Shown here one piece after another: positions 5,248 through 51,315 of a DNA stretch of 64,000 bases. The stretch lies in NCBI GenBank assembly GCA_001872605.1, contig MNXM01000153.1, positions 5,100-69,099 of the forward strand, read 5' to 3'. A model generated the notes under the pieces. The model saw nothing but the letters and a program-made list of their open reading frames with translations, did not search any database and was not told where the DNA came from. How positions within the stretch are numbered: the first letter of the stretch is position 1; each line of letters begins with the position of its first letter. Origin of the DNA: Armatimonadetes bacterium CG2_30_59_28 (GTDB lineage Bacteria > Armatimonadota > Abditibacteriia > CG2-30-59-28). The translations under genes were made by a program, and so were the position numbers.

Positions 5248-5618
5248 AGCATTCCTCTTTAGGAACGATCTGCGGTTCACTCGCGGCAGTGACGCTGGTT
5301 TTGTCCGGCTGTTCTCAGGGCTTTGAGGGTGCTCGCAACAGCCCTCCTTCTCCTCCCGTAACGCAAGCTGAGTCGGCCCTCGGAGACTCGCCATCTCCTG
5401 ATAGCGAACCCGCAACGGCGCCTGTTGTTGATCCCAGGTTGCGGATCCTGATGTCGAAGATAAACCTCAGAGCAACCGTTCAGGTGTCGACAGGAACGCC
5501 CCCAGTTTCACACTGGGGGGCTCTGCACTCAACTGAACGATTACACCTCCGATACATCAACATGATAAAGAACCGGGACGAGACGGGTGTAAGTAAGATT
5601 TGTGATGCGTGGTGGTAA
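5244..5618 (+). pseudogene. Putative lipoprotein interrupted by a MITE at 5585
   Basis: Lipobox VLSGC and ATGA overlap with namZ; the last 11 codons and the stop lie inside the MITE. Confidence 0.55.
5540..5568 (-). promoter_or_regulatory. Sigma-70-like promoter (TTATCA-N17-TGTAAT), antisense, 16 bp from the MITE end
   Basis: Reverse complement of 5563-5568 is TTATCA and of 5540-5545 is TGTAAT; 17-nt spacer. Confidence 0.4.
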
Positions 5619-5881
5619 TCAGCCCCCTGGGGCCGGGCAGGCATAAACGAAAGGTTGGGGAAACCTACGCGAGTGAACGGGGACAGTAACAACCCCCATC
5701 CGGTCTTCGACCACCTTCCCCTGTGCGAACCGTTTTGGTTCGATAACGGGGGAAGGTGCGAACCCTTTGGGTTCGAGGATGGGGGTTGTTGCATGAGCTC
5801 ACTCAGGACCGACGAACCGCGAACTGCGTTACACAATCACTGTCGGCTTCCAGACTATAGGCGCCTATGGTTCCGGCTGGG
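5585..5881 (+). mobile_element. MITE family A, copy 1 (one TIR lost)
   Basis: Begins GGGTGTAAGTAAGATTTGTGA; collinear with the reverse complement of 50939-51225 up to ...CCGGCTGGG, then the distal TIR is missing. Confidence 0.85.
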
Positions 5882-6133
5882 AGAGATGCTTCGGAGGTGG
5901 CCCGACTGCTTTCCGACGCCAAACTGTTTTCGACACAAACCGACTATCGCGAGCTACTGAAAAAAGCGGGTGGAGAAAGCACAACAGCTTGTCCGGCAGG
6001 CGAAGAGGGGCGCCGTTGGCAATACGAGCGACAGCATAGAAGACCTGGTCCGCACCATGGCAGACTGCTCCCCATGTGACACGGACTTTCTCCGGACCCG
6101 GTCATCCGATCCTCAACTGCAAAGGTGAGTACC

Positions 6134-7474
6134 ATGTTAACCGAAATCCGCAAACCATACCTTCCGGCAACGCCGATAGACGAAGACGCTTTGCGCATCA
6201 CGAAGATGGAAACCGTGATCCCAGAGGACGTTTTCCCGGGGTTGCTGCTGCTCCGTGTCCACACCACCGAGGGAATTGTCGGGCACGGCGAGACTTACTA
6301 CTGCCCCCACGCCGTAGCGGCGATGGTGCACGATTGGATGGCGCGCCGGCTTCTCGGCGCGGACGCCCTGGCTATCGAGAGCCATTGGCGGTTCCTGTAT
6401 GAACGCGCAGCCAACTTCGGCGCGCGCGGTGCGGAGCTGCGCGCCATCTCCGCCATCGACCTCGCCCTCTGGGACATCCTTGGACAAGTCTGCAACCAAC
6501 CGATCTACCGGCTTCTGGGCGGGCCGGTGCGCGACAGGATTCCCGTCTACAACAGTTGTGGGAATCCGACCTACGGAATCAAGGCGAATGGCGATCAGGG
6601 GTGGCCTGGGTACGGCAGCCTCGGAGAGCCTGGCCCACTGTCCGACTCATTCAACTTCTTTCACGATCCTGCCGCGCTGGCGCAGGACCTGCTGGAATCC
6701 GGCTATTCAGCAATGAAAGTGTGGCCGTTCGACGCGGCGGCCCATCAGCACGGCGGGATGCGGATTTCGCGGGAAGACGTCGAGCGGGCTATCACTCCTT
6801 TGCGGAAGATTCGTGAGGCGTTCGGGACGCGCATGGAGTTCATGATAGACGGACACGCGTTCTTCCTGCTCCCCGCAGCGCTGCGGATTGCCGATGGCTT
6901 GCGTGACCTGAACCCGCTCTGGCTTGAGGACATTCTGAAGATGGACAACCTCGAAACTCTCGCAGACTTCCGCCGCCAATCACGCCTGCCCATCTCCGCC
7001 AGCGAGATGCTGTTGGCGCGCCCCGACTTCGCGGAACTGTTGCAGAAACACGCAGCCGACTACGTGATGATTGACCCAACGTGGGTGGGGGGAATTTCCG
7101 AGACAGCGCGGATCGCTCATCTCGCGCAAGCCCACAACATACCCGTCACCATGCACGATTGTACCGGCCCGCTCACTCTCTACGCCGGTCTGCACGTCAA
7201 CGCCGCCGTCGCAACCTGCTGCTACCAGGAGACCGTTCGAGCACACATCCACACCGTCTATCCCAGGCTAATCGACAAACAGATTGAGGTCAGGGACGGT
7301 TTCGTTGACATCCCCCGCGGCGCGGGATTGGGCGTCACGCTCAACCCGGATTTGTTCGACACGAGGTCCACGACATACCGCAGCAGTGAATGGGAGGTAC
7401 GTTCCCGTGACGATGCCGGAACCGACGAGAAAAGGCAATATGGCCGATCCGGCAGGGGCCGGGTTACACGTTGA
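6134..7474 (+). CDS. Mandelate racemase/muconate lactonizing enzyme (enolase superfamily) protein
   Basis: GIVGHGET, ISAIDLALWDILG, KVW, DGH, WLED, ASE, HDC motifs. Confidence 0.88.
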   Translation: MLTEIRKPYLPATPIDEDALRITKMETVIPEDVFPGLLLLRVHTTEGIVGHGETYYCPHAVAAMVHDWMARRLLGADALAIESHWRFLYERAANFGARGAELRAISAIDLALWDILGQVCNQPIYRLLGGPVRDRIPVYNSCGNPTYGIKANGDQGWPGYGSLGEPGPLSDSFNFFHDPAALAQDLLESGYSAMKVWPFDAAAHQHGGMRISREDVERAITPLRKIREAFGTRMEFMIDGHAFFLLPAALRIADGLRDLNPLWLEDILKMDNLETLADFRRQSRLPISASEMLLARPDFAELLQKHAADYVMIDPTWVGGISETARIAHLAQAHNIPVTMHDCTGPLTLYAGLHVNAAVATCCYQETVRAHIHTVYPRLIDKQIEVRDGFVDIPRGAGLGVTLNPDLFDTRSTTYRSSEWEVRSRDDAGTDEKRQYGRSGRGRVTR

Positions 7475-10400
7475 AGTACCTCGCGTCGGGGTGGTGGACG
7501 ACGAGGGCGGAGGTGGATTGTTCGGGTTCGAGTTGATAGCCGGTGGTCAGCCTGACGCCGATGGAGTTCTCTGCATCGAGAACCCGTACCAGCTTTTCCT
7601 GGTCTTCGAGATCAGGACACGCGCCGTAGCCAAAGCTGTAGCGCTTGCCGCGGTATTGCTGGTGGAAGATTTGCTCTACTTCGGGAGCGTCATCTCCCGC
7701 GATGCCGAGTTCCTCACGGATGCGCTTGTGGACAAGCTCTGCGAGACCTTCAGCAGCTTCCACGCTGAGTCCGTGGAAGTAGAGGTACTTGGTGTACTTA
7801 TCCTTCGCAAAATACTCCCGGCTGAGTTCGGTTGCCTTCGCCCCGATCGTGACAAGTTGGAGCGCTACCACGTCCATGACGCCGGAACCCACCGACATGA
7901 AGTAATCGGAGATGCAGGACTGGCTGCGGTCTTTCTGTCGGGGAAAAGTGAAGCGACACATTTCCCGACTCCCCTCGGGTTCGTAAAGGACGAGGTCGTC
8001 TTGTTCTGACTGGCACGGGAAGAAACCGTAGACAGCGCGCGGCGCGAGATGTCCATCACCAATGACCTCCTCCTGCAGTTCCTGCAACAAGTCCCGATAT
8101 TTTTCTGCGACGGCCGTCTCGAATCCCTTCCTGCTCAATCCGCGAATCTGCCATTGCCCTTTGAAGAGGGCAATGGGATTGACATAGCGGAAGACCTCGC
8201 GGAGATCGAGATCGTCGACGACTCGCGTCCCCCAGAAGGGCGCCACTGGAATGACAATGTCGCGACGAGTCTCAGTGCGTGCGCGATCTGAAGTCCGAGA
8301 CATTCTCCGGGCGGTTTTTTTCGCCTCGTTGCCTCCGACCGCGTCTGTGTGGGAATCACAGATGCGGCGCCCTTCATCCAGCTTCGCAGCTCTCCTGCTG
8401 GTGTCCATCAGCGCGTCCATTGTTTTCAGACCGGCAAAGGCGTCATCCCCATAGAATACCCCGTGGCGATAGGTCTGCCGCAGATCTTTCTCTACGTACC
8501 GCCGTGTCAGCGCCGCGCCGCCGCAGAGCACCGGGATGGTGAGTTCACGTCGCGCGAGATCCTCCAGGACATGCTTCATTTCAACCGTGGATTTGACGAG
8601 CAGCCCGCTGAGTCCGATGGCGTCCGCCTGCTGTTCCAAGGCCGCGGAGATGATGTTGTCCGACGGTTGCTTGATGCCAAGGTTGACGATCTGGTAGCCG
8701 TTGTTGGACAGGATAATATCGACCAGGTTCTTGCCGATGTCGTGCACGTCTCCCTTCACGGTGGCCAGCACCACCTTGCCCCGTGACATTCCCTCCAGCC
8801 TGTCCAAGTGAGGTTCCAGAAAAGTGACGGAAGCCTTCATCACCTGCGCCGCGTCGAGAACGGAAGGGAGCTGCATCTTCCCGTTGCCGAAGAGGTCGCC
8901 CACGGTTCGCATCCCGTCGAGGAGGATAGTGTTGATGATCTCCAGCGGCGCGCGCTCCTGCATCGCCTGTTCCAGCAGCTCTTGAATCCGCACCTGCCGA
9001 CCACCGATGCCAGCAACTCTCTCCCCGTTGATGAGCATGTGTTTGATGCGCTCCTCGAGAGTCATCACTCGGTCTGGCAAGCGCTCTGCTTGAGGCGCGG
9101 TCCCCTTGTGTGTATCGAAGTGGTTCATGTAGTTGGCCAGCGGGTTTCCATTGGAGGTGTCATGCTCAATCAGTCGACGGGCGAGATCAACTTCCTCATC
9201 CGGAATCTTGAAGAGAGGGAATATCTTCTCATAGTTGACGATGGCCATGTCGAGACCGCGCTCGACAGCCTTATGCAGAAAGACACTATTGAGAACTCGT
9301 CGCGAGTGCGGGGACAACCCGAAGGAGATGTTGCTGACACCCAGGTTGGTGAAACAGCCGGGCAACTTCTCCTTGATGAGAAACACGGCCTCCAGCGTTT
9401 CCATCCCCGCGGTGCGGTATTCCTCCTGTCCGGTGCTGATGGGCAACACCAGTGGGTCGAAGATCAGGTCCTGCGGGCGAAGTCCGTGTTTAACGGTGGC
9501 GATGGAATGGATGCGCTCAGCAATCTCCAACTTCTTCTGTGCGGTGAGAGCCATGCCGTCTTCGTCGATGGTCAGGGCAATGACGGCCGCGCCAAACTCC
9601 CGAGCGAGAGGACAAACACGATCCGTGCGCTTCTCGCCGTCTTCGAGGTTAATCGAGTTAATGATCGCCCTTCCGGGAATGTGCTTCAGCGCTTCCTCGA
9701 TGGCGTCGGCTTCCGTGGAGTCGATCACGAGGGGAGCCGAAACGCGTGTGGCAAGAGACGAAATTACCTTCCGCATATTCGCTTTCTCATCTTCACCGAC
9801 AATCGCAACACAAACGTCCAGAGCGTGTGAACCCTCATTCACGAGACCGCGGGCCAGGGACAGCATTTCGTCGAATCGCTCTTCCTGGACCATCTCCCGA
9901 AAAAGACCGGACTGCGTGGTGGCATTCATCTTCTCGGCGACGATGGTTGGCGCGGGTTCCTGTCGAATCGGCGCGCTCGTGTAGCAACTTGCGATGGAGG
10001 GAGCGTACTGCGCCTCGCGTCTCCGAGGAGTGCAGTTGCCGACAGCCTCGATCAGCGCTTTCAGGTGCTCCGGTGTCGTTCCGCAACACCCGCCCACGAT
10101 GCTCACTCCGTACTCCGTGACGAACTCTCTGAGCGACAACGCAAAGTCTTCAGGAGTCAGATGGTAAACGGCTTTCCCGTCGTCACTGGTGGGAAGACCC
10201 GCGTTGGGGACACAGGACACAGGCGCGGGACTGTACTCTCCCAGGTAACGGATGGCATCATTCATTTCCGCAGGTCCAGTGGCGCAGTTCATCCCGATGG
10301 CATCCAAACCGTAAGGCTCCAGCGTCGTTAGCGCCGCGTCGATTGCAGTGCCGACGAGCATGGCGCCCGTCGTCTCGATGGTCACCTGCACCATCATCGG

Positions 10401-10958
10401 CAGCCCGACTCCAGCAGAAACCTTAGCACGACGCGCTCCCGCGATGGCCGCCTTTGCCTGAAGGATGTCCTGGCAAGTTTCGATAAGAAGGACATCGCAT
10501 CCACCATCAATCAACCCCAGCGCCTGCTCCTCGTAGCTGACGGTGAGGTCGTCAAACGAGATGTGCCCCAACGAGGGGAGCTTCGTCCCCGGTCCCATGG
10601 AGCCGATCGTAAAGCGAGGGTTCGTCGAAGTGGAATAGCTCGCAACCACTTCGCGAGCGAGGCGCGACGCTGCGAGGTTGATTTCGTACGCGCGGTCTGC
10701 GATGCCATACTCCGCAAGCACCACGCGGTTGGCTCCGAAAGTGTTGGTCTCAACGGCATGACAGCCCACCTGCAAGAAAGAGGAGTGGATGTCGCGAATG
10801 ATGTCCGGACGGGACAGACACAATATCTCGTTGCATCCCTCCAGTCCGCGGAAGTCATCGAGGGAGAGATCGCACAACTGGATGGAAGTGCCCATCGCTC
10901 CGTCCAGGACAGCGACGCGCTCGCGCACGTGTCGGACGAATAGGTTGTCAATCAACAT
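7464..10958 (-). CDS. metH: Cobalamin-dependent methionine synthase
   Basis: LDGAMGT, GGCCGTTPEH, pterin domain DSTE/NSINLEDG, B12 motif GDVHDIGKNLV...GLSGLL, activation domain GKRYSFGYGACPDL; ATG at 10958. Confidence 0.96.
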   Translation of the reverse strand: MLIDNLFVRHVRERVAVLDGAMGTSIQLCDLSLDDFRGLEGCNEILCLSRPDIIRDIHSSFLQVGCHAVETNTFGANRVVLAEYGIADRAYEINLAASRLAREVVASYSTSTNPRFTIGSMGPGTKLPSLGHISFDDLTVSYEEQALGLIDGGCDVLLIETCQDILQAKAAIAGARRAKVSAGVGLPMMVQVTIETTGAMLVGTAIDAALTTLEPYGLDAIGMNCATGPAEMNDAIRYLGEYSPAPVSCVPNAGLPTSDDGKAVYHLTPEDFALSLREFVTEYGVSIVGGCCGTTPEHLKALIEAVGNCTPRRREAQYAPSIASCYTSAPIRQEPAPTIVAEKMNATTQSGLFREMVQEERFDEMLSLARGLVNEGSHALDVCVAIVGEDEKANMRKVISSLATRVSAPLVIDSTEADAIEEALKHIPGRAIINSINLEDGEKRTDRVCPLAREFGAAVIALTIDEDGMALTAQKKLEIAERIHSIATVKHGLRPQDLIFDPLVLPISTGQEEYRTAGMETLEAVFLIKEKLPGCFTNLGVSNISFGLSPHSRRVLNSVFLHKAVERGLDMAIVNYEKIFPLFKIPDEEVDLARRLIEHDTSNGNPLANYMNHFDTHKGTAPQAERLPDRVMTLEERIKHMLINGERVAGIGGRQVRIQELLEQAMQERAPLEIINTILLDGMRTVGDLFGNGKMQLPSVLDAAQVMKASVTFLEPHLDRLEGMSRGKVVLATVKGDVHDIGKNLVDIILSNNGYQIVNLGIKQPSDNIISAALEQQADAIGLSGLLVKSTVEMKHVLEDLARRELTIPVLCGGAALTRRYVEKDLRQTYRHGVFYGDDAFAGLKTMDALMDTSRRAAKLDEGRRICDSHTDAVGGNEAKKTARRMSRTSDRARTETRRDIVIPVAPFWGTRVVDDLDLREVFRYVNPIALFKGQWQIRGLSRKGFETAVAEKYRDLLQELQEEVIGDGHLAPRAVYGFFPCQSEQDDLVLYEPEGSREMCRFTFPRQKDRSQSCISDYFMSVGSGVMDVVALQLVTIGAKATELSREYFAKDKYTKYLYFHGLSVEAAEGLAELVHKRIREELGIAGDDAPEVEQIFHQQYRGKRYSFGYGACPDLEDQEKLVRVLDAENSIGVRLTTGYQLEPEQSTSALVVHHPDARYFNV

Positions 10959-11079
10959 AGTCAGGACTTTCAGATGTATCAGCGCGGACTCATGAGTCCA
11001 ACGAGGATGGCGTCGGAATGACATGATAGCAGGACATCGGGTGAACGCGGAAGAGGAGACGGATGTCCGGTCTGCGGCC

Positions 11080-11255
11080 GGGTGTCAGTCAGATTTGTGA
11101 GAATCCACCCCAGCCGGAACCATAGGCGCCTGTAGCCTGAAACCCGACAGTGATTGTGTAACGCAGTTCGCGGTTCGTCGGTCCTGAGTGAGTTCATGCC
11201 TGGCCGACCCCAGGGCGCTGATTACCTCCGCGCGTCACAAATCTGACTTGCACCC
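11080..11255 (+). mobile_element. MITE family A, copy 3 (176 bp, palindromic core deleted)
   Basis: TIRs GGGTGTCAGTCAGATTTGTGA and TCACAAATCTGACTTGCACCC; flanks TCTGCGGCC/TCTGCTGCT (degenerate 9-bp duplication, 7/9). Confidence 0.88.
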
Positions 11256-11271
11256 TCTGCTGCTGCCACGA

Positions 11272-11299
11272 TTGACAGCATTCGCCACAGGTCTATAAT
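11272..11299 (+). promoter_or_regulatory. Consensus sigma-70 promoter TTGACA-N16-TATAAT for the FIST-mqnA unit
   Basis: TTGACA at 11272-11277, TATAAT at 11294-11299. Confidence 0.8.
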
Positions 11300-11309
11300 C
11301 AACTGTGAT

Positions 11310-12560
11310 ATGCGTGAGACAAAGTGTAAACGCGGACTCACAGAGTCCGAGATGATACAGTCCGGCGTTGGTTTCTCAACCGCATCAACCGGTCGGACGG
11401 CTGCTGACCAAGCGGTGGCGCAAGCCATGGGCCATGCTGGTATTGACCGGGCCGATTTTGCCGTAATGTTCGCCACCCCGCATTATGCCTGTGAGTACAC
11501 ACGGATGCTCAATGCTGTCCACACGGCGACGGGCGCCCCGCACATCGTCGGCTGCAGCGGAATGGAGGTCCTCACTTCCATCGGCGAGGTTGAGCAAAGT
11601 CCGGGGGTGGCGGTATTAGTCGGCACCAGCGATGGCTTGCACCTGTCCAGCTTTATCCTTCCTGACGCAGATGCAGCCTCGCATCTGGCCTCCGAATTGG
11701 CGAGTTCACCCCCACACGATCACACCGGTTCTCCCCTTCTGATGCTGTTCTCCGATGTCATGCATATTCACCCAACATCCCTGCTGAACGCCTTCGGGGC
11801 CGCGCTGCCGGGCGTTCAGATCGTGGGCGCGGGCGCTTCGGGGTCTCTTGAAAAGATGGAAGCATACCAGTGGGCGTGGAGGAACGGCGTTGAGACTCTC
11901 AATGACTGCATTTCACATCGCGGCGTCTCCGGCTTGATGATCCGTGGTGACTTCTCGCCGCTCATTGCCGTCGCAAGGTCGTGCAGACCCCTTGGCGAAT
12001 CCTATGTAATCACCAGTGCCGATGGACATCTGATACGCGAGATAGCCAATCGGCCAGCGATGGAAATCCTGCAGGAGTCCGCAGCATCTCTGAAGGAAGC
12101 CGAGAAGCAGCACGTTGAGCGTGCGCTCGTGGCGGGGTTGGTGGTGGATGAAGAAAAGTACCCTCTCGAAATCGATGACTTTGTCTTCCGTAACATCGCT
12201 GGCGTCGAGCCGTCATCGGGTTCTTTAGTCATCTCCGAACGGGTCCGCGTCGGGCAGACCATCCAGTTCCATATCCGCGATAAGAATGCAGCGCGCCAAG
12301 ATATGGAGCGGGTTCTCCAGGACCTCTCGGAAAAGGCCGCGGGGAAGCGTATCGCCATGGGCTTCTACTTCAATTGCCTGGCGCGGGGTGCGGGTTTCTA
12401 CGGGGAGTTCAACCACGACACAAAAGTCATTCGTCGCTATTTCCCCGACGTGCCCATCGTCGGCTTCCTCGGCAACGCCGAATTCGCGCCCGTGGGTGGG
12501 AGCAGCGTGTTACACAATTACACGGGAGTTCTTGTGCTCGTAGCGGAGGAAGTCCGCTAG
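11310..12560 (+). CDS. FIST N/C domain sensory protein
   Basis: VGCSG, GAGASG, QTIQFHIRD, YFNCLARG, GFLGNAEFAP, HNYTGVLVL; start may be 11352. Confidence 0.85.
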   Translation: MRETKCKRGLTESEMIQSGVGFSTASTGRTAADQAVAQAMGHAGIDRADFAVMFATPHYACEYTRMLNAVHTATGAPHIVGCSGMEVLTSIGEVEQSPGVAVLVGTSDGLHLSSFILPDADAASHLASELASSPPHDHTGSPLLMLFSDVMHIHPTSLLNAFGAALPGVQIVGAGASGSLEKMEAYQWAWRNGVETLNDCISHRGVSGLMIRGDFSPLIAVARSCRPLGESYVITSADGHLIREIANRPAMEILQESAASLKEAEKQHVERALVAGLVVDEEKYPLEIDDFVFRNIAGVEPSSGSLVISERVRVGQTIQFHIRDKNAARQDMERVLQDLSEKAAGKRIAMGFYFNCLARGAGFYGEFNHDTKVIRRYFPDVPIVGFLGNAEFAPVGGSSVLHNYTGVLVLVAEEVR

Positions 12561-12569
12561 GATCACCAC

Positions 12570-18269: not shown

Positions 18270-18276
18270 GGTCAGT

Positions 18277-18352
18277 TCGGACTCGTGAGTCCGCGTCGGA
18301 CTCGTGAGTCCGCGTCGGACTCGTGAGTCCGCGTCGGACTCGTGAGTCCGCG
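18277..18352. repeat. Four perfect tandem copies of a 19-bp palindromic unit (TCGGACTCGTGAGTCCGCG)
   Basis: Units start at 18277, 18296, 18315 and 18334; internal hairpin GGACTC-GT-GAGTCC; no spacers. Confidence 0.95.
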
Positions 18353-34944: not shown

Positions 34945-34999
34945 TACATTCGTTGCTCCCTTCGCTGGAGGCAGTTGTCACGCCGCAATGATAGCACAT

Positions 35000-35016
35000 C
35001 AAATCTGACTTGCACC
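35000..35016. mobile_element. Isolated TIR stub of MITE family A
   Basis: CAAATCTGACTTGCACC, identical to 17 nt of the family A terminus. Confidence 0.55.
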
Positions 35017-35175
35017 AAGCCAGCAGACTTGCATCTCCGACGTGCCGTATGAGACAATCCACCAGTGCTTCGCCGGTAACTGGGTGTTGTTGCCGAACTC
35101 GCGAAATTCGGGCGGACAGGCGCAACGACAATCAGGTGGTGATGCTCGCTATCCCGGGACAAAAGGAATTACCGT

Positions 35176-38380: not shown

Positions 38381-38395
38381 TGTTAATCACCTCCT

Positions 38396-40614: not shown

Positions 40615-40620
40615 TTCCTT

Positions 40621-41277: not shown

Positions 41278-41286
41278 GGCCTTCTA

Positions 41287-41533
41287 TTGCTGAGCACAAT
41301 TCGGCGCGTAAACCGGACGCAACTGCGCAATGCTATTCTGACTGAAACGGTTGAACTCGACATCAGCAGCCACGCTCATATCGAGGGTTACAAGGATGGA
41401 CTGACAGAGCAATATATGCAACGAGCGGTTTTGGAGGGCGCGGTAATCGCAGACTACCTCGACCGAGGGCGCAAACTGCTCTTGCGTTCCCGACGACACG
41501 GTTTGGCATCCAAACTATAAGATTCGAAAGTAA
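41287..41533 (+). pseudogene. DUF4258-like toxin remnant (internal deletion + frameshift)
   Basis: ISSHAH...RAVLEGAVIADYLDRGRKLL in one frame; C-terminal VPDDTVWHPNYKIRK* in the +1 frame. Confidence 0.65.
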
Positions 41534-41544
41534 CGGTGATCAAC

Positions 41545-41751
41545 ATGCGTCGATGCTCCAATTGCGACAAGCAAACCGAATTTTGTTTTACAACCAACAC
41601 CTATACCAGAAAAGATTCCGAGGTGGAAACAGCCAGTCAGATCACTGAATGCATCTCACCGGTATTTGATGCGGCCAAGGGGCTGCACAAATTACCCGCG
41701 CCCAGAGTCTCTGTCACCTTCCCCGAAACGGTCCAGGCCAAAGCGGCGTAG
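41545..41751 (+). pseudogene. YgiT/MqsA-type zinc-finger antitoxin remnant lacking the second CxxC
   Basis: MRRCSNC...TTNTYTRKDSEVE directly followed by TASQITE; only one CxxC; follows the DUF4258-like gene. Confidence 0.55.
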
Positions 41752-41785
41752 CCACTCCCATACACACCCACACCCCCATACTTCT

Positions 41786-44700
41786 TCACTCCTTCCCCTC
41801 CTGCTCCGCCAACTGCGCTGTCAGATCCTGGTCTGTTTCGGTGACCGGCCATTCCCAGTCGCGGTTGAGGAATGCCTTGTTGAGCCACTTAATGAAGTCG
41901 TCCACGTACGTGTGCATAATTGGGATATCGAAGAGACTCAGAATCGTTCCAATGATCAGTCCCCCGATGACGACGACCCCGACGGACGAATAGGCATCCA
42001 TTCCGGTCTTGGGGAAGAAGGCAACGGGTATCATCACGATAATGGTGATGATCGAGGTCATCACAATGGGGCGCATCCTTTGCGGGCAAGCCTCAGTCAC
42101 GGCCTGGTCGCGCGGGACACCGCGGTCCCGATAGCGCATGATCATATCGATCAGCAGGATGGCTGTCGTGATGTCCATGCCGGTCAATACAATGACCGCC
42201 ATGATCGACACCGTGGAAAATGCCTGGTGTGTCAGCCATAGAGCCACGAACACACCTGCCATCTCCAGAGGCAGGGAAAAGCCCATTTGCAGCGGTTGCA
42301 GGAACCCACGGAACTGGGCTACCAGAACGAGCAGCATGAATATGATCGCCAGCACCAGTCCGGTGAGGAGGCGCCGGAACGAGTCCATCATCTGCGTCAT
42401 GTCGCCGCGAACTTCCAGACCGTAGCCTGGGGGCCAGTTCAGTTCCGCCATGGACTTCATCTCTATCTCCATCGCGAGGTCCATCGAGGGGGGGCCATTG
42501 CGACGATAGTATCCGAGGATCGTGTTGACCCGTCGGATACCGTCGTGTTCGATGACCGTCGGTGCGCGTCGCGGCTCAAGATCTGCGACGCTTTTGAGCG
42601 GGACCTGCCTTCCACCGTCGCCGGTGATGTACAATTCCTCCAGATTCTTCGAGGTGGCTCGGCTATCGGGTTTATACCGGACCTGGATGACATTCTGGCG
42701 AATGTTGGGGATCCGATAGAATTCGTTCGTAAACCCGCCGCGCAGAGAGTAGTAGGCTTGCTCGGCGATTTCGTTCACGGTCAATCCCAACTCCTGTGCG
42801 CGGCTGGGATTCACTTTGACTTCCCAGTCCGGCAGCCCCATGGTCCAACTGGTAGCAACCTGGTGCATGCCGTAGGTATGCTCCGCAATCTCTGCGACTT
42901 GCTTTCCCATTTGATCGAGGGTATTGAGGTCAGGGCCGTAGACAATCAACGCGATGGGCGCCTGCGAAGAGGCCATGACATCCGACCCCATTTCCTTGAT
43001 CTGGAAGCGGCGGATTCCCGGGATGGTGTCCATCGCCTCTCTCTGTACGCCGTCTATTACCTTCCACATGTCGCGCGTCCGTTCGCTCCGGTCGGACAGC
43101 GTCAACATAAATGTGGCGGAATTCACGAGCGGCATTGCATAGCCGGTAAAGTAGGTTCCCGTGCTTTCCAGCATGTTCTCAAAGCCCATCTCGATGGAGG
43201 CTTTCTCAACCTCAGGATGTCTCAAGATTATGCGCTCAACCTGCTCCACCGCGCGCTCGGTCTGTTCGAAAGACGTGCCTGGCTGCATTTCCAGTATCCC
43301 ATAGGCTTGCCCTACATCCGCCAACGGCATCATCTCGCTGCCGATGAAGTAGTAGAAGCCGAATCCCACGATGACCGTTGCCAGGATGCGCGCCATGTTG
43401 GAAAAGCGATGTTTCAGCATCCAGGCGATGATTTTGGAATAACCCGTCTCAAGTCGGTTCAAGAAATGCTGGAAGGGCATCAACGCATAGTTGTAAAGAT
43501 ATGCGTAAGGTCTAAACCGCAGGTCCTTTTCGCGTTCATCTTCGTGCCGCAACAGATTGGCGCACAACAGAGCGGTCAGGGTGAAGGAGACCAGCATCGA
43601 GGCCATCAGACCGAAGATGAGCGGCCAGACCAGCTCGCGAAACATCAACTCCACAATACCGCCGCAGAAGAGCATTGGGGCAAGCGCCAGAACGATCATG
43701 AAAGTTGAGGCTATGACGGCCAGTCGCACCTCCGCAATGCCGTCGATGGTGGCTTCCTTTGGGCTCTTGCCCATCCGCAGGTGGCGTTCCACCGAGTGGA
43801 CATCAATGATGGTGTCATCCACCAGACGGCCAATGGACAAGAGAAGACCGATCAGCGTCCCGCTGTTGAGCGTCATCCCAGCCGCGTGAAGACACAGAAT
43901 GGCGATCGCCAGAGACATGGGAATGGTAATCAGGGAAATCAGGGTTCCCCGCCACTCCCCCAGGAAGAAGAAGACCACGATGCCGCACAGGAGGATCGCT
44001 ATCGCCAACTCATGCATCATGTTCTCAAACAGGATGTCCACAAAGTGGGCGTTGCTGTAGGACTCCTCGAATTTGACTCCCGGGTTATTGCTTTCTATCT
44101 GGCGCAGAACCTTGTTGACGCCCTGGATCGTCTTCCAGGAACTCGCCCAGGGGTTCTGGAGCACAGCGACCTCGATGGAAGGGATGACTTCCCCCATCGT
44201 CCCCGGCTCGTGTTTGAGAAAATGATAAGCGCTGCGTCGCTCCCAGTGGGTGTCGAGCACCCGGGCGACGTCTTTCACATAGACAATCCGCGGGCTTTGT
44301 GCCGGTCCCAGTAAAGTGGTTTGTGGTTGGGGGTTGGGGGTTGACGAGGACGCCTGTGAACTTCCTCCCATCGTCCCCATGCCGCTTCCACCGGCGCCGC
44401 CAGCGCCGCGCTGGGTGCGGCCGGTGGAAGGATTGACGGCGGCAACGGGATAGTTGAGCACCATGTCTGCGCTGATCGCGCGCGTGTCGAAGCGGACAAT
44501 AGCCTCGTTGTCTCCAGATGTCAGAGTTCCCCCAGGGCGGCTCACGTTGTATCGGTCGATGGCGTTGCGCACGTCCAGGATGGAAAGCCCGTAGGCTGCG
44601 GCTTTCTCCCGATCAACAACCACCTGCAACTGCCGGCGATATCCGCCGAACGGAACAACCGAGTAGACGTCCGGCACGACCTTGAGCCGGTTCACGACCT

Positions 44701-45241
44701 CGTTATCAGCGAATTCACGTAACCCGACCTTGTCCCAGCCCTTTCCTGTAAGGCTTAGAGTGACAATCGGGATATTAAGAGGATCAATGGGAAGCACCCA
44801 GGAAGGTTTCAGGTTGGCGCCGGTCGCGGGCAGGTTTGCCTGTACCACATTCATCAGAGCTTGAACGTCGAAGAGGGCCTTCTTCATGTCAACGCCATAC
44901 CAGAATTCCAGACTGACAATGGAGAACCCATCCTGTGACGTGGAGCGGATATAGTGGAGGTTCTGGATGTTGACCATCTGCTCTTCGATGGGTTTGCTGA
45001 TGTACAGCTCCATCTCCTCGGCAGACAGACCGGGCATCATCGACACGACGCCGATCATGGGGCTTTCGACATAGGGCATGAACCGGCGCGGCATGAACTT
45101 AAGAGCCAGAACTGATAGCACCACCATGGCGAAGTAGAAGGCGATGATTACATACGGGTGCTCAATCGACCACTTATGGATCAGATGCAGCGGGTTGACG
45201 CCGCGACTTTCCCAGCGAGGTTTGTGAACAGAATCAGCCAT
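41786..45241 (-). CDS. RND efflux permease (AcrB/CusA superfamily), Met-rich, atypical TM4/TM10
   Basis: GLSAEEME...IE, VVPFGGYRRQLQVVVD, IGRLVDD, RMRPIVMTS, VVIGGLIIGTILSL. Confidence 0.93.
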   Translation of the reverse strand: MADSVHKPRWESRGVNPLHLIHKWSIEHPYVIIAFYFAMVVLSVLALKFMPRRFMPYVESPMIGVVSMMPGLSAEEMELYISKPIEEQMVNIQNLHYIRSTSQDGFSIVSLEFWYGVDMKKALFDVQALMNVVQANLPATGANLKPSWVLPIDPLNIPIVTLSLTGKGWDKVGLREFADNEVVNRLKVVPDVYSVVPFGGYRRQLQVVVDREKAAAYGLSILDVRNAIDRYNVSRPGGTLTSGDNEAIVRFDTRAISADMVLNYPVAAVNPSTGRTQRGAGGAGGSGMGTMGGSSQASSSTPNPQPQTTLLGPAQSPRIVYVKDVARVLDTHWERRSAYHFLKHEPGTMGEVIPSIEVAVLQNPWASSWKTIQGVNKVLRQIESNNPGVKFEESYSNAHFVDILFENMMHELAIAILLCGIVVFFFLGEWRGTLISLITIPMSLAIAILCLHAAGMTLNSGTLIGLLLSIGRLVDDTIIDVHSVERHLRMGKSPKEATIDGIAEVRLAVIASTFMIVLALAPMLFCGGIVELMFRELVWPLIFGLMASMLVSFTLTALLCANLLRHEDEREKDLRFRPYAYLYNYALMPFQHFLNRLETGYSKIIAWMLKHRFSNMARILATVIVGFGFYYFIGSEMMPLADVGQAYGILEMQPGTSFEQTERAVEQVERIILRHPEVEKASIEMGFENMLESTGTYFTGYAMPLVNSATFMLTLSDRSERTRDMWKVIDGVQREAMDTIPGIRRFQIKEMGSDVMASSQAPIALIVYGPDLNTLDQMGKQVAEIAEHTYGMHQVATSWTMGLPDWEVKVNPSRAQELGLTVNEIAEQAYYSLRGGFTNEFYRIPNIRQNVIQVRYKPDSRATSKNLEELYITGDGGRQVPLKSVADLEPRRAPTVIEHDGIRRVNTILGYYRRNGPPSMDLAMEIEMKSMAELNWPPGYGLEVRGDMTQMMDSFRRLLTGLVLAIIFMLLVLVAQFRGFLQPLQMGFSLPLEMAGVFVALWLTHQAFSTVSIMAVIVLTGMDITTAILLIDMIMRYRDRGVPRDQAVTEACPQRMRPIVMTSIITIIVMIPVAFFPKTGMDAYSSVGVVVIGGLIIGTILSLFDIPIMHTYVDDFIKWLNKAFLNRDWEWPVTETDQDLTAQLAEQEGKE

Positions 45242-45272
45242 GTTTCTCTCCAGTAGACAAATCCATCTCTCT

Positions 45273-45339
45273 TCCGCAGATTTCGCGGATGGACGCTGAT
45301 CAAGGTTCCTGAATCTGCGCCATCCGCGTCATCTGCGGA
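45273..45339. repeat. Imperfect palindrome of the CGCAGAT/ATCTGCG type (REP-like)
   Basis: TCCGCAGATTTCGCGGATGGACGCTGAT ... ATCTGCGCCATCCGCGTCATCTGCGGA. Confidence 0.6.
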
Positions 45340-45375
45340 CAGGGCTGTTTGTAGGAGTCGAATCCTTGCGAAGAT

Positions 45376-45978
45376 TCAGCAGCCTCCACCTCGCGAACCG
45401 CAGCAGGAGCCGCCCCCGCTGTGGTCGTGACCCTGAGTCCCGGCCTTCCCTTCCTGCCGGGAAGTCGCCCCGACAGTCTCCGGCACGACCTGGTAACCGC
45501 CAGACTCCAGTGCGGCGATCAACTGGGTCAGCGTCGCGTTCCCCTGGGGACCGAATTGCACGAGGACCGTTCCTTCCTTCTCCTGCACTCGGGCGCTTTT
45601 GACCCCGGGGGTGGCTTCCAGGGCCTTTACCGCACTCTCCGACGAGGATTCGCTTGAGTTGGGCTTGATCTTCAAGACCAAAGACAGGACGTAGGGTTCC
45701 CCGTGCGCATTACGGGCCTTGCCGGCTGCGATCGACATGAACTGGACGTCCGTCTTTTCGGGAGCAAATTGGACAACGGTTCTTTTCTGTTTGAGATCAG
45801 TCGAGACCGCCGCAACGCCGGTAACTTTCTTCAGACCGGATTCCAGGTTCGGCACGCACGCGGCGCATCGGAAACCCTCCACCTCGTATGTCGCCTGCTG
45901 CGGCTTGGATAAAGCAGACAACACAGCGGTACACATTCCTGTAACTAACACTCCCATCAATGCTAACCTGATATTCAT
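45376..45978 (-). CDS. Secreted tandem HMA-domain metal chaperone
   Basis: Signal peptide; first domain YEVEGFRCAACV...LKKVTGV; second HMA-like fold lacks CxxC; His/Cys tail HDHSGGGSCCGSRGGGC. Confidence 0.8.
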   Translation of the reverse strand: MNIRLALMGVLVTGMCTAVLSALSKPQQATYEVEGFRCAACVPNLESGLKKVTGVAAVSTDLKQKRTVVQFAPEKTDVQFMSIAAGKARNAHGEPYVLSLVLKIKPNSSESSSESAVKALEATPGVKSARVQEKEGTVLVQFGPQGNATLTQLIAALESGGYQVVPETVGATSRQEGKAGTQGHDHSGGGSCCGSRGGGC

Positions 45979-46043
45979 TTCTTCCTCCTTAAGAACACTT
46001 CCTACTGACTAACTCCGAGCAACGCCCCACCCTTCGAGTGGCG

Positions 46044-48788
46044 TTAACCCGTCTTTTCCAGCTTCATGCCGCACTTCGGACAATCCCCTGGCTTGTCTGA
46101 CTTCACTTCCGGGTGCATCGGACAGGTATACATCGCTTCGGCTTCAACACCTCCTTTACTTACCGGCTCCAAACGCATCCCGCACTTGGGACAGTCGCCC
46201 GGTTTGTTCGACTTGACCTCCGCGTGCATCGGGCAGGTGTAAGTCACCTTGGATTTCACTTCCACCCGGACCTTGGGCTTGGGAGGCGCACCGTAGGACT
46301 TGTGCGATACAACGGTCGGCTCAAGGCGCATGCCGCATTTTGGGCAGTCGCCCGGCTTGTTCGATTTGATCTCCGGGTGCATCGGGCAACTGTAGACTTT
46401 CCCGGGAGCGGTTCTTGACCCCTGAGCGGGTGACTTCATCGCGTGGTCTCCATGGCCGGTTCCCGCTGGCTCTTCCACCGGGGTGACTTGAGGCGGCGCT
46501 TCTTCCGAGGGTTTCAGCGTTGCGGGACCCTCTTTCCCCCATGCTGTCGGGAACACGGAATCCCCTTCCTTCAGCTTCTCGTGCCCGGCCCAGATGACCG
46601 AGTCGCCTTCGTTGAGCCCCGACAGGACGACCGTCCGCTTGCCATCGGTGGGCCCCAGCGTCACCATCACTCGATGCGCCCGGAACTGGCCGCCCTTGGT
46701 CATCGGCTCCAGCTTCATGCTACACTTTGGGCATTTGCCCGGCTTGTCCCGCACAATCTCCGGGTGCATGGTGCAGTAGTACTGCATCTTGCCGGTCTCC
46801 TTGCGCCCGATAGCCACCCAGACTGCCGGCTGCTTTTCGGTATAGAAGACACCGGTCGCTTGTGGTGTAACGTGCATAATTGCCTGGTTGGGAACAGTGA
46901 TAGCCTCCGGAATTCCTCCCGTGGCAATTCTCATCGTGATAAATTCGCCGGGGAGAAAGCGCTTATCCGGGTTGGGTGTGAGCGCCTCAACCACGGCGGT
47001 GCGCGCGGTTGGGTCGACAGCGGGGAAGACCGACGTAACCTTTGCGACAATGGGTCTATCGGGGTGTTTTGCGCTGGTCACCATTATACGGTTACCCACC
47101 TGAATGTTGTTAAGGTCCTGCTCCGCGACATTGGCTTGCAGTCGGATGGGATCGATCTCAGCAATTCGCAGGATCGGGGTGCCCGGACTGACAAGGACCC
47201 CGGGGCTGACGAGCCGCTGAATGACGACGCCCGGCCGAGTCGCGCGGATTTCGGTGTAGCCTCGCACGGTGGTGGCGGCGGTGAAGCCTGCCGCAGTTTG
47301 TCCCACCATGGCCGACATCTGCGCCACCTTCGACGATGCGCCCTTCACCTCTGACTCGGCGGAGCGAACCATCGACTTCGTCGCAGTGATGCCCGCCCGC
47401 GCCTGATCGACTTTTGCCTGGGTAGCAGAGACTACGGCGCGGTTCTGCTCGATACGAGCCTTCACGCGATCTACCTCCGCCTCGGCTGTTGCGATCATTG
47501 TTCGGGTCACATCCACATTGGCCCGATAGTGATGCACGTGAGAGTCCGCGGTTTTGATCATCGCCTGCGCCTTGCGAACCCTTGCCTGAACCTGGTCCAC
47601 TTTGGCCCTGGCGCTGTCGTGCTGAGCCTTTTCCCGCTGAAACTCCTCCGCCGAAATGGCGCCCTGCTTAACCAATTGCTGTTCCCTCTTAAGTTCTTCG
47701 ACCCAGTAGGCATAGTCCGCCTGTGCGGCTACGAGGTCGGCCTGGGCGTCGCCTAAATCCGCGCGGGCCGCCTCTGACTCCGCCTCCATCGCGTCAGACT
47801 CGTGCTCCATCGCCACGAGTTCTTGACGACTCGCGAGCAGCTTCTTTTCGGCGACAGTCAGTTCCTTCTGCGACTCAACCACCATTGCTCTCGCGCTCTC
47901 GACGTCCCGCTGGGCCTCCGATAACATCGCCTGACTTCGGTTGACCTCCGCTTCAGCCTGAGACCGCGCGGCACTGGCTTTTCCTACCTGAGCGGAGGCT
48001 TCACGCTGGCCGTGGGCGGCAGCTTCGCGACTGTACGCAGCCTCCCGTTCCCGCGCTCCCAGCTCCACGCTGTCCAGGCGCGCGATCAGTTGTCCGGGCT
48101 GCACGCGGTCGCCGGGATAGACCGGCAGCGACACGATCTTGCCGACGACGCGTGGATAGATATCCTCATCGTTCTTTGCGACAACCTGTCCGGTATAGGT
48201 GACCGCTGCCTCGAAATCACGACGCGCAATCTTCTCGATGGCGACCGGCGCCGCACCGACAGGAGGTTTCATCGCACTCATATCCATCGCCTGCGCCTCA
48301 ATCACCGTCATGGAGCCTGGCTTGCGGTACTTCTTGACGACGTGACGTACACCGATCAGAATGACCACCAAAGTCAACGTCCCGACCACAAATTGCCGGT
48401 TGAGCAGTTTCCGGGGAGACAGCTTCATCCCTCTCCGGGCGGACATGACAACCCCCAGGAGAACAAGTACGCCTATTCCGAGAAACAAGAAGAGCCGGGA
48501 TCGCGGGTTTGCTTGCTTCATCCCCGGCATCGCCCTATCTCCTCCGGCGTTCTGCTCCTGCTTGCCCATGTCACTCATGCCTTCGTGGCTGTCCATGTCG
48601 CTGCCCGACTGAGCGTGCACGGGAGCCAGCCACACCGTCCCGCCGGGGTGCGGAGCCCACGCTGTCAGGAGCGTCAGGCACAGACTCATCAGAGCAACCG
48701 TTATCCTGTCGGATTGACGCGCCGCCTCAAGGAATCTCTCACCTCCGCGGAGAGACTTGGTCGTTTTCTTACATTGATGCTTCAACAT
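46044..48788 (-). CDS. RND periplasmic adaptor (MFP) with very long hairpin and four HMBD repeats
   Basis: IYPRVVGKIVSLPVYPGDRVQPGQLIARLD, IRATRPGVV, VDPTART, four YxCxMH-x-CPKCxMxL repeats; RBS AGGGAGG before ATG 48788. Confidence 0.9.
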   Translation of the reverse strand: MLKHQCKKTTKSLRGGERFLEAARQSDRITVALMSLCLTLLTAWAPHPGGTVWLAPVHAQSGSDMDSHEGMSDMGKQEQNAGGDRAMPGMKQANPRSRLFLFLGIGVLVLLGVVMSARRGMKLSPRKLLNRQFVVGTLTLVVILIGVRHVVKKYRKPGSMTVIEAQAMDMSAMKPPVGAAPVAIEKIARRDFEAAVTYTGQVVAKNDEDIYPRVVGKIVSLPVYPGDRVQPGQLIARLDSVELGAREREAAYSREAAAHGQREASAQVGKASAARSQAEAEVNRSQAMLSEAQRDVESARAMVVESQKELTVAEKKLLASRQELVAMEHESDAMEAESEAARADLGDAQADLVAAQADYAYWVEELKREQQLVKQGAISAEEFQREKAQHDSARAKVDQVQARVRKAQAMIKTADSHVHHYRANVDVTRTMIATAEAEVDRVKARIEQNRAVVSATQAKVDQARAGITATKSMVRSAESEVKGASSKVAQMSAMVGQTAAGFTAATTVRGYTEIRATRPGVVIQRLVSPGVLVSPGTPILRIAEIDPIRLQANVAEQDLNNIQVGNRIMVTSAKHPDRPIVAKVTSVFPAVDPTARTAVVEALTPNPDKRFLPGEFITMRIATGGIPEAITVPNQAIMHVTPQATGVFYTEKQPAVWVAIGRKETGKMQYYCTMHPEIVRDKPGKCPKCSMKLEPMTKGGQFRAHRVMVTLGPTDGKRTVVLSGLNEGDSVIWAGHEKLKEGDSVFPTAWGKEGPATLKPSEEAPPQVTPVEEPAGTGHGDHAMKSPAQGSRTAPGKVYSCPMHPEIKSNKPGDCPKCGMRLEPTVVSHKSYGAPPKPKVRVEVKSKVTYTCPMHAEVKSNKPGDCPKCGMRLEPVSKGGVEAEAMYTCPMHPEVKSDKPGDCPKCGMKLEKTG

Positions 48789-48904
48789 CGTTCTTTCCTC
48801 CCTGCGTACAATCAAAGGGCAGTGGGTTGAGTCTACTCCTCATGCAGGTGCAATGAGAAAAGAGCACTCGATCCGAGAGGAGAGGTGTCCCCTCCCCAGC
48901 ACTG

Positions 48905-49330
48905 CTAATGGTCCTCGTCGTGTCCATGGCCCTCGTGGGCATGGCCAATCTTAGCTTCCAAGAACATCCCGCATTCCGAGCATTTTCCTGGTTTGTCCCG
49001 TTTCACTTCAGGATGCATGGGGCAGATGTAAGTGACCTTGGTTCCTTCCGGCGCTTTTGCCTGGAGGAACATTCCGCACTTTGGGCATTTCCCCGGCTTG
49101 TCCTGCTGGACGTCGGGATGCATCGGACACGTGTACGTGATATTCGCGGCGTCCGTGCCACTTTCACTGCCGGATTCCGGCGTCGCTGCCGGCGCTTCCG
49201 GCGGAGTCGCCATCGGAGGGGGAGCCACTCCCCCTTCTGACGACAAGTTGCTGCTGTTCTTGCTGCACCCCCACAGGGCGAAAGCTGCGATTCCGAGCAG
49301 CAGTCCCAGGATTGTTACGCGTTTCAACAT
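48905..49330 (-). CDS. Lipoprotein with two HMBD repeats and His-rich tail
   Basis: Lipobox LWGC; YTCPMHP...CPKCGMFL, YICPMHP...CSECGMFL; HAHEGHGHDEDH. Confidence 0.88.
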   Translation of the reverse strand: MLKRVTILGLLLGIAAFALWGCSKNSSNLSSEGGVAPPPMATPPEAPAATPESGSESGTDAANITYTCPMHPDVQQDKPGKCPKCGMFLQAKAPEGTKVTYICPMHPEVKRDKPGKCSECGMFLEAKIGHAHEGHGHDEDH

Positions 49331-49411: not shown

Positions 49412-49574
49412 GGGTGCATCCCGGAATTACGGAAAAGCGGATACATCGATTTTGTCGCCGTAGGATAAAGCTCCAGCTTTGTCAGTGGCAGACCTCTTTC
49501 CCGCAATTCCAATGTGTATCTGACAAAGCTGGAGCTTTATCCTACGGCAATCTCCGTAATTCCGGGATGCACCC
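49412..49574. mobile_element. MITE family B (GGGTG...CACCC ends, 163 bp) enclosing a REP doublet
   Basis: Perfect 22-bp TIR GGGTGCATCCCGGAATTACGGA; flanks TTACCTTC/TTACCTTT. Confidence 0.88.
49457..49548. repeat. GTAG-type REP doublet (REPIN-like), 29-bp perfect inverted arms
   Basis: GCCGTAGGATAAAGCTCCAGCTTTGTCAG and its exact inverse; GTAG followed by hairpin GATAAAGCT-CC-AGCTTTGTC. Confidence 0.8.
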
Positions 49575-49588
49575 TTACCTTTTGCGTA

Positions 49589-50421: not shown

Positions 50422-50862
50422 TTAGACGGTTTGAGGAGGGGCGCGAAGGCGCCTGGGTTGTTTAGTGTTGGATTGCAGGAGTAAATTGGGATGTTGAGCA
50501 AGTGCGAGCGCGGGCCCTATTTGGGGGACGATGAGAATGGGCCCGGGGACGTGTGCGCCGACGCTATCGTTCGTCCGTTCACATACGCGCTTCTCGGGAA
50601 GGGGATAGCACTCGTCGAGAGGGGCCCGGGGGGAAGCCTTCAGGGCGCAACCGCAATCTTTCCCTGGGGAGGCGGCGGAGTCGCAACAGCAAGAGCCACC
50701 GGATCCCGAACTCGGGCAACGCACTGAGACGGCGCGTAATTGCCCATTTTCCCTTGGGCAGCAGAGGCGCATCGGCGCAATTACTGCCACCGATGCCACC
50801 CACACCAGCAGCAGAAGCAACGCCGTTTGCGCCCTGATTCTACAATTGCCTTGCAGGTTCAT
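50422..50862 (-). CDS. Cys-rich exported leader protein ending in RAPP (DUF2946/CutF/CruR-like arrest peptide candidate)
   Basis: Hydrophobic signal-like segment, 11 Cys (CC, CCC, CGC), C-terminus RRLRAPPQTV*; GGAG RBS; first ORF after the promoter. Confidence 0.72.
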   Translation of the reverse strand: MNLQGNCRIRAQTALLLLLVWVASVAVIAPMRLCCPRENGQLRAVSVRCPSSGSGGSCCCDSAASPGKDCGCALKASPRAPLDECYPLPEKRVCERTNDSVGAHVPGPILIVPQIGPALALAQHPNLLLQSNTKQPRRLRAPPQTV

Positions 50863-50893
50863 TCTGTTTTCTCTCCGAGTGACTTCCGACCAT

Positions 50894-50922
50894 AGTATGC
50901 GCTATGAATGCTCAACTGTCAA
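50894..50922 (-). promoter_or_regulatory. Sigma-70 promoter of the metal island (TTGACA-N17-CATACT)
   Basis: TGTCAA at 50917-50922, AGTATG at 50894-50899; alternative -10 TACTAT at 19-nt spacing. Confidence 0.7.
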
Positions 50923-50938
50923 GCGCCACAAAACATCC

Positions 50939-51225
50939 GGGTGCAAGTCAGATTTGTGAGAATCCACCCCAGCCGGAACCATAGGCGCCTATAATTTCGA
51001 AACCGACAGTGATTGTGTAACGGAGTTCGCGGTTTGTCGGTCCTGAGTGAGTTCATGCAACAACCCCCATCCTCGAACCCTTTGGGTTCGCGAACCCTTT
51101 GGGTTCGAGGATGGGGGTTGTTACTGTCCCCTTTCACTCGCGTAAGTCTTTCCAACCTCTCGTTTACGCCTGCCCGGCCCCAGGGAGCTGATTGCCACCA
51201 CGCATCACAAATCTTACTTACACCC
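50939..51225 (-). mobile_element. MITE family A, copy 2 (complete, 287 bp)
   Basis: TIRs GGGTGCAAGTCAGATTTGTGA / TCACAAATCTTACTTACACCC; flanks AAAACATCC/GAAACATCC; central nested palindrome. Confidence 0.92.
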
Positions 51226-51234
51226 GAAACATCC

Positions 51235-51315
51235 GGGTGCAAGTCAGACTGGTGGCAGCCGACATTCCCGTAAGGGCGTTTCGCGGTGGGCGCGTCGGCC
51301 TGCCCGGCCAGGGAG
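51235..51315. mobile_element. Older diverged family A-related MITE remnant abutting copy 2
   Basis: Starts GGGTGCAAGTCAGA right after the duplicated target; contains CCTGCCCGGCCAGGGAG similar to the family A internal motif. Confidence 0.6.

Follow-up and report, generated by a model that had tools for sequence, protein, structure and literature searches.

Three short repeats in one stretch of bacterial DNA share the same ends, and beside each of them lies a promoter-like sequence at the same distance. Does this spacing follow a rule of insertion, and if so, which enzyme obeys it and how does it find its sites? The stretch is a window of 64,000 nt from contig MNXM01000153.1 of Armatimonadetes bacterium CG2_30_59_28 (positions 5,100 to 69,099 of the forward strand). 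A preliminary description, made from its letters, had read the repeats as a non-autonomous, promoter-targeting, Mutator-like family of MITEs (miniature inverted-repeat transposable elements). This reading is supported by an enrichment of promoter boxes in the flanks of the elements and by a cognate transposase. A spacing of 16 bp between element end and -35 box is confirmed genome-wide as real and far beyond chance, and the MITEs are very probably non-autonomous derivatives of an insertion sequence (IS) of the ISKra4 family, whose transposase inserted them 16 bp upstream of -35 boxes.

The window comes from a metagenome-assembled genome (MAG) of 5.49 Mb in 344 contigs with 58.5% G+C, which is about 90% complete and comprises contigs of at least 5 kb only. 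The host, an uncultured groundwater bacterium of the Armatimonadota, shares its taxonomic family with an Armatimonadetes MAG from groundwater, and the loci of copies 2 and 3 of the window were found again in several groundwater assemblies. All promoters discussed here are predictions by consensus match of their -35 and -10 boxes.

A 16-bp rule at the element ends

The terminus shared by the three window copies, GGGTGYMAGTMAGATTTGTGA, matches the window exactly at five positions (Table 1), where no match is expected by chance. Throughout the MAG it occurs 146 times with up to two mismatches, and the reversed pattern used as a control gave no occurrence. These termini correspond to a family of about 75 copies without an open reading frame (ORF), many of them at contig ends, where the assembly broke. 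Pairing of the termini yielded 42 complete elements, and the 36 with listed sequence span 176-436 bp. Several internal subfamilies exist that have only the terminal 21-23 nt in common, as expected if the terminus is the binding site of the transposase.

Complete elements with enough flanking sequence to be scored for both duplication and promoter numbered 35. Fifteen of them have a perfect target duplication of 9 bp, and in 23 it shows at most two mismatches. In a metagenome contig, one copy interrupts another repeat; excision of the element together with one duplication gives a sequence that matches an uninterrupted paralogue (95.7% identity over 140 nt), so the boundaries of the element and the length of the duplication are correct. 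The family is thus made up of MITEs: the elements are short, have no coding capacity, occur in many copies with inverted termini and duplications, and share their termini with an autonomous element. A separate case is a 309-bp element at G000 C82:23242-23550 with MITE termini (two mismatches), whose 50-nt flanks are exact inverted copies of each other; it represents either a palindromic structure of larger size or an artefact of the assembly.

The flanks were read outward from every distinct end, which gave 139-140 flanks. What the preliminary description had seen at three copies proved to hold across the genome: TTGACA is enriched exactly at base 17 and nowhere else. The exact hexamer begins there in 19 of 140 flanks, compared to at most one at every other position, and with one mismatch allowed the count is 32 of 140 against at most three elsewhere. 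At base 17, 24 of 139 flanks have a full promoter with -35 and -10 boxes (at most three mismatches overall, spacer 16-18), for which the random rate is 0.0003 (0.03%) and the binomial P is ~1e-58. With a looser, promoter-like definition 50 of 139 flanks are positive, as opposed to 1-5 at registers shifted by 3-6 nt.

The consensus of these sites is TTGACA/G for the -35 box and TATAAT or TATACT for the -10 box, with a spacer of mostly 17-18 nt. Bases 1-16, which comprise the duplication and 7 nt, carry no information, and neither do the spacer and the downstream sequence. A promoter match accompanies 17 of the 35 complete elements and lies on one side only in 16 of those 17, the two end types facing promoters equally often (8 vs 8). 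At all 24 strong sites a co-oriented ORF starts within 400 nt. Inward-facing promoters were considered as well; the small TGTCAA peak at base 18 that would indicate them is an echo of TTGACAA at base 17.

Two other repeat families of the same genome served for comparison. MITE family B, with GGGTGCATCCCGGAATTACGG termini, is similar in size and copy number, has duplications of 8-9 bp and provided 58 distinct ends. The GGG termini of this family are typical of ISKra4-family ISs in this phylum (L148, L163, L164); it differs from the family described here in showing no promoter targeting and so acts as a negative control within the genome. A third MITE-like family of about 175 bp (TATACTCGTTAAGGTTGAG... 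termini) provided 76 distinct ends. Enrichment of TTGACA at base 17 or elsewhere is absent from the ends of both families, so the 16-bp signal is generic neither to intergenic repeats nor to the procedure. On at least three occasions the promoter-seeking MITE inserted, at the 16-bp register, beside an internal TTGACA of the third family that is followed by no usable -10 box.

For replication, 29 flanks that are absent from this genome were taken from other metagenome contigs, a related groundwater MAG and one contig labelled Acidobacteria. TTGACA with at most one mismatch begins at base 17 in six of them and at any other position in at most two.

The parent insertion sequence and its relatives

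A transposase bounded by the terminal repeat of the MITEs exists, and it is Mutator-like, as had been anticipated for the family; it belongs to ISKra4 (p-MULT 4). It is encoded by an IS of 1484 bp (bases 336-1819 of the 2189-bp contig L178) with perfect 25-bp inverted repeats GGGTGTAAGTAAGATTTGTGATAGG (25/25), the first 21 nt of which are the MITE terminus (21/21). The transposase, P0002, has 455 amino acids. Its single ORF without frameshift and the lack of passenger genes argue against ISMich2 and against the ISAzba1 transposons. P0002 matched the ISKra4 model NF033572 with 283.4 bits (cut-off 205) and also PF06782. With the ISLre2 model it scored 111.4 bits, which is below the cut-off of 200, and no IS256 or Transposase_mut model was among its NCBIfam or Pfam matches. 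These scores place the parent transposase in the Mutator-like ISKra4 family, not in ISLre2/TnGBS or IS256.

P0002 was found by an exhaustive protein search, in which it was a singleton among 15 billion proteins. The query was a remnant in the MAG (C236:11648-12149, 502 bp), derived from a sister IS by internal deletion, that retains pieces of an ISKra4-family transposase (E = 2e-13, last 39 profile positions); identity to P0002 amounts to 74% over the C-terminus. Between the termini of this remnant and that of the MITEs, 3 of 21 positions differ. A sister IS, L179, was recovered from the same sample as L178. It has the terminus type of the remnant, to which its DNA is 79% identical, and its transposase is 57% identical to P0002. 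The host of the L178 IS is a different organism, since the identity of the IS flank to this genome is only 69%.

Searches of the MAG for the parent gave fragments and the sister-IS remnant only. No parent IS was found in 116 metagenome contigs bearing the terminus or, searching with the remnant DNA, in about 400 genomes of the phylum. ISKra4-family genes are present in 44 of 301 Armatimonadota genomes, and among 30 ISKra4 loci of the phylum those termini that are visible are of the GGGTGCATCC type.

Two further loci of the MAG belong to the wider relationship of these enzymes. One is another ISKra4-family IS, split by the assembly at two contig ends (G000 C20:1-210 and C296:9040-9251). Its terminus (GTGTGCATAATCC... 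/ GTGTGCATAATCCATTCTGATG) is a different one with only three ends in the genome, and the C-terminal 57 amino acids of its product show 51% identity to P0002. The other is an ORF of 457 amino acids at a contig start (G000 C318:15-1385, also C106:5161-5337) that gave weak matches to the ISKra4 and ISLre2 models and may encode a divergent Mutator-like transposase.

Guerillot et al. 2014 defined five families of prokaryotic Mutator-like transposases (PMC3942029). Insertion 13-17 bp upstream of sigma-A promoters was reported there for ISLre2/TnGBS (p-MULT 3) and for thirteen ISs of the ISKra4 group (p-MULT 4), a group that includes ISKra2/4/5/6, ISCasp2/3 and ISLfe1/2, whereas insertion of IS256 (p-MULT 1) was reported as random (PMC3942029). 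The criterion for the ISKra4 group was a sigma-A promoter 13-17 bp from the junction at >20% of the sites; the repeats of its members measure 18-39 bp and terminate in C, the duplications measure 8-9 bp, and the promoter can lie on either side owing to the near-perfect repeats (PMC3942029).

The elements described here resemble this group in the transposase family, in near-perfect repeats that start with G (the terminal C of the opposite strand; 25 bp in the L178 IS), in the duplication length (9 bp in the MITEs) and in the position about 16 bp upstream of a sigma-A -35 box in either orientation. They differ in being non-coding, in their size, several internal subfamilies and copy number, and in a host from a phylum outside those listed for p-MULT 4 (PMC3942029). 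The signal is also sharper, with 36% of the ends at one register compared to the published '>20% at 13-17 bp'.

TnGBS and ISLre2 likewise insert close to sigma-A promoters, 15-17 bp upstream of them, by related Mutator-like DDE transposases that share PF06782. They do so, however, in one orientation with the right repeat by the promoter, whereas both ends are used here, and in contrast to TnGBS no conjugation genes are present in the elements. A more distant parallel is the yeast element Ty3, which inserts at a fixed distance from a transcription-initiation complex, at RNA polymerase III starts, rather than at a target sequence of its own (an analogy drawn in PMC3942029). Ty3 is a eukaryotic retrotransposon with another enzyme and another polymerase, and tethering has been demonstrated there but is only inferred here.

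MITE forms are not mentioned in PMC3942029, and a full-text literature search gave no promoter-targeting bacterial MITE. Promoter targeting itself is already published for ISKra4-group ISs; new here is a clear non-autonomous family, not a new principle, and the picture of how ISKra4-type elements behave is unchanged by it.

Site finding and alternative readings

The structure of the elements, the duplication, the 16-bp rule, the lack of a local sequence preference, the restriction to one family and a parent transposase of identified family are all observed, and a mechanism has to account for them. The MITEs are very probably deletion derivatives that retain only the ~21-25-bp terminal inverted repeat of the ISKra4-family (p-MULT 4) IS and are mobilised in trans by its transposase. 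The geometry is plain: the target is cut 16 and 7 bp upstream of the -35 hexamer, a stagger of 9 bp, and repair leaves the element end 16 bp from TTGACA, with the promoter directed away from the element. As the two termini are nearly identical, either end may face the promoter.

Such insertions are presumably tolerated because the core promoter and the adjoining 16 bp upstream remain intact. The preliminary description had supposed that the element replaces UP elements. This applies to the DNA beyond about -52, which is exchanged, and not to the 16 bp beside the -35 box, which stay in place, so that the proximal UP subsite is kept.

How the site is located can be judged from the composition of the targets. 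By analogy with TnGBS, for which tethering of the transposase to RNA polymerase is a published proposal and not a demonstration (PMC3942029), it would be reached via promoter-bound RNA polymerase or sigma factor and not by a reading of TTGACA as such, and we consider this reasonably probable. Of 95 flanks with a poor -35 box (at least three mismatches), 9 have a strong -10 box correctly spaced from it, compared to a random rate of 0.26%, which favours recognition of the promoter-polymerase complex.

Alternatively, TTGACA might be read as DNA by the transposase or by a DNA-binding partner from the host that is not RNA polymerase, and promoters would be hit just for containing the hexamer. Nearly all of the information does sit in the -35 hexamer. 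Furthermore, TTGACA without a usable -10 box was targeted repeatedly, with at least three independent insertions at the 16-bp register in the module TTGACAAAGCTGGAGCTTTATCC within other repeats and further targets of this kind in contigs C122, C174, C276 and C288. These insertions favour a transposase that reads the hexamer, or sigma region 4, directly. With the strong -10 boxes still enriched beside poor -35 boxes, and with polymerase tethering as the published model for TnGBS, itself a proposal, a reading of the bare hexamer appears rather unlikely to us.

In a bolder proposal the exact 16-bp rule would hold even at a lone TTGACA, and the transposase would directly read the -35 box, or sigma region 4 bound to it. 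The host might, moreover, have co-opted the elements, their palindromic cores acting as insulators or terminators that shield downstream promoters. We regard these ideas as speculative and quite improbable. If the direct reading of the -35 box were true, this family and the non-targeting sister family of the same genome, whose transposase family is the same, could as a pair pin the determinant to a few residues, and the family would offer a promoter-seeking insertion tool and a promoter map from sequence alone for uncultured phyla.

Concerning the enzyme, the MITEs bounded by GGGTGTAAGTAAGATTTGTGA could be mobilised by another transposase of this genome, from the split C20/C296 IS or the C318 ORF, the identity of the L178 terminus being coincidental or convergent. 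In favour of this, the L178 IS comes from another organism, no intact IS of its type is present in the MAG, and the genome has these two other Mutator-like transposase genes. Against it stand the terminus match of 21/21 within a perfect 25-bp repeat and the clearly different terminus of the C20/C296 IS with its three genome ends. We therefore judge this very unlikely, and the enzyme would be ISKra4-like even so.

Less probable still is that insertion is random and that selection leaves only those copies that landed in harmless intergenic DNA upstream of promoters. In its favour, MITEs generally gather between genes, and in this population copies 2 and 3 have gone to fixation. Selection would, however, favour any upstream position and not one register, and positions 16, 18 and all others are at background; moreover, base 17 carries no signal in either of the intergenic MITE families used for comparison.

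That the promoter belongs to a longer element with an outward promoter at each end can be practically dismissed: many ISs do have outward -35 boxes near their ends, but the 9-bp duplications here directly abut GGGTG.../...CACCC, the sequences of bases 1-16, of the spacer and past the -10 box are unrelated between copies, positive elements have the promoter on one side only with a single exception among 17, and reconstruction of the empty site restores the target exactly.

Several observations weigh against our interpretation of the MITEs as promoter-targeted ISKra4 derivatives. At base 17, roughly one in two complete elements lacks a recognisable promoter. The site beside copy 1 is weak, its -10 box has no A at position 2 and a consensus scan makes no call there. 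The insertions in the TTGACAAAGCTGGAGCTTTATCC module fit direct reading of the -35 box as well as polymerase tethering. As to the parent, the sole autonomous copy of the IS, in L178, has no target duplication and no adjoining promoter, and an intact parent transposase was not found in the MAG, neither in the sequence inward of solitary termini (n=25) nor by searches with ISLre2 and ISKra4 models or tblastn. As to mobility, copy 2 is present in 10 of 10 other assemblies that contain its locus and copy 3 in 4 of 4. No empty orthologous site was seen, since reconstructions compared with metagenome loci gave a paralogous empty site only. We thus found no evidence of present-day mobility in the compared assemblies.

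In bacteria, transposition that targets promoters is rare, and its mechanism has yet to be solved. About 50 independent, base-exact sites in one genome, together with two internal negative controls and an identified transposase, make this family a good substrate for studying how a site is found, and comparison of the family-B parent transposase with P0002 could locate the targeting determinant. In addition, the insertion sites point to dozens of likely sigma-70 promoters in a phylum for which hardly any experimental data exist.

The window copies and neighbouring repeats

Positions of the window copies, their termini, duplications and promoters are collected in Table 1, together with examples of the third MITE-like family.

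Table 1. Elements, target-site duplications and predicted promoters in the window, and examples of the third family in other contigs.
Feature	Position	Strand	Remarks
Weak promoter-like site, TTATCA-N17-TGTAAT	5540-5568	-	16 bp from left end of copy 1
MITE copy 1, truncated	5585 to ~5890	-	exact terminus 5585-5605 (+); far terminus lost
Left target-site duplication of copy 2, TCTGCGGCC	11071-11079		
MITE copy 2, complete, 176 bp	11080-11255	+	exact termini 11080-11100 (+) and 11235-11255 (-)
Right target-site duplication of copy 2, TCTGCTGCT	11256-11264		7/9 match to left
Promoter TTGACA-N16-TATAAT, sigma-70-type	11272-11299	+	12/12 consensus; 16 bp beyond right end of copy 2
Solitary degenerate terminus, TGGTGCAAGTCAGATTTGATG	34997-35017	-	4 mismatches
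Promoter TTGACA-N17-CATACT	50894-50922	-	10/12 consensus; TTGACA at 50922-50917; 16 bp from left end of copy 3
Left target-site duplication of copy 3, AAAACATCC	50930-50938		
MITE copy 3, complete, 287 bp	50939-51225	+	exact termini 50939-50959 (+) and 51205-51225 (-); core is a 32+32-nt palindrome at 51059-51122
Right target-site duplication of copy 3, GAAACATCC	51226-51234		8/9 match to left
Decayed end of older copy, GGGTGCAAGTCAGAcTGGTGGCAGCC... / GGGTGCAAGTCAGAcTGGTGG	51235-51320	+	sixth, degenerate terminus match at 51235-51255 (3 mismatches); 22-nt direct repeat
Third MITE-like family, examples	G000 C146:4592-4737, C303:14930-15068, C122:1019-1157, ~35 more; L135:6500-6950		

The imperfect 9-bp duplications that had been described for the two complete copies are present, and so are the 16-bp spacing and both promoters. 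The assignment of the promoters in the preliminary description has to be exchanged between copies 2 and 3, the TTGACA-N16-TATAAT promoter adjoining copy 2 and the minus-strand TTGACA-N17-CATACT promoter copy 3. Its count of three promoters at three copies comes down to these two strong sites and a weak one at copy 1.

Copy 2 occupies the divergent gap between metH (7464-11024, minus strand) and a FIST-domain gene (11310-12560), and its promoter is directed away from the element into the latter. The promoter of copy 3 likewise points away from the element, into an ORF of 146 amino acids (50422-50862, minus strand). Copy 1 is inverted relative to copy 3, with inverted matches of 89%, and its promoter-like site is directed at a hairpin repeat of 72 nt and towards a NamZ-like gene, at its 3' end. 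A scan of the window and of copy 1 with Rfam gave no family match.

Beyond copy 3, the decayed terminus directly abuts the right duplication. It is the sole such tandem in the genome, a search for further double insertions having found none besides copy 3. An older copy may once have stood 16 bp from the promoter, and a second insertion at the same register would have duplicated the 9 bp again and displaced it.

The window also holds a copy of family B (49412-49575, 164 bp). Its termini of 22 nt are GGGTGCATCCCGGAATTACGGA, its duplication is TTACCTT(C/T), and it encloses the perfect 29-nt inverted pair GCCGTAGGATAAAGCTCCAGCTTTGTCAG. An inverted module, GTAGGATAAAGCTCCAGCTTTGTC, is common to family B and the third family.

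The hairpin repeat next to copy 1 (5470-5541, minus strand) is a conserved unit of about 72 nt, GTAACCGTTCAGTTGAGTGCAAAGCCCCCCAGTGTGAAACTGGGGGCGTTCCTGTCGACACCTGAACGGTTAC, with some ten copies in the genome, and the changes in its stem look compensatory; it has no Rfam match and no T-run behind it. The palindrome CGGACTC-N3-GAGTCCG forms a 19-nt tandem array at 18258-18352 and 19863-19919. Single copies of it at 10979-11004 and 11325-11350 bracket MITE copy 2, and it is also found near one end of a 231-bp MITE subfamily. At 35170-35420 the window contains two modules CCTGAAGCATCGGAGGCACACCTGATTCTTCAGAATCAGGTT and units of GGTTCCTGACACA, which recur beside a solitary MITE terminus at G000 C228:13367. 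Finally, a coding repeat of 78 nt with many Cys and His codons occurs seven times on the minus strand within 38078-49135.

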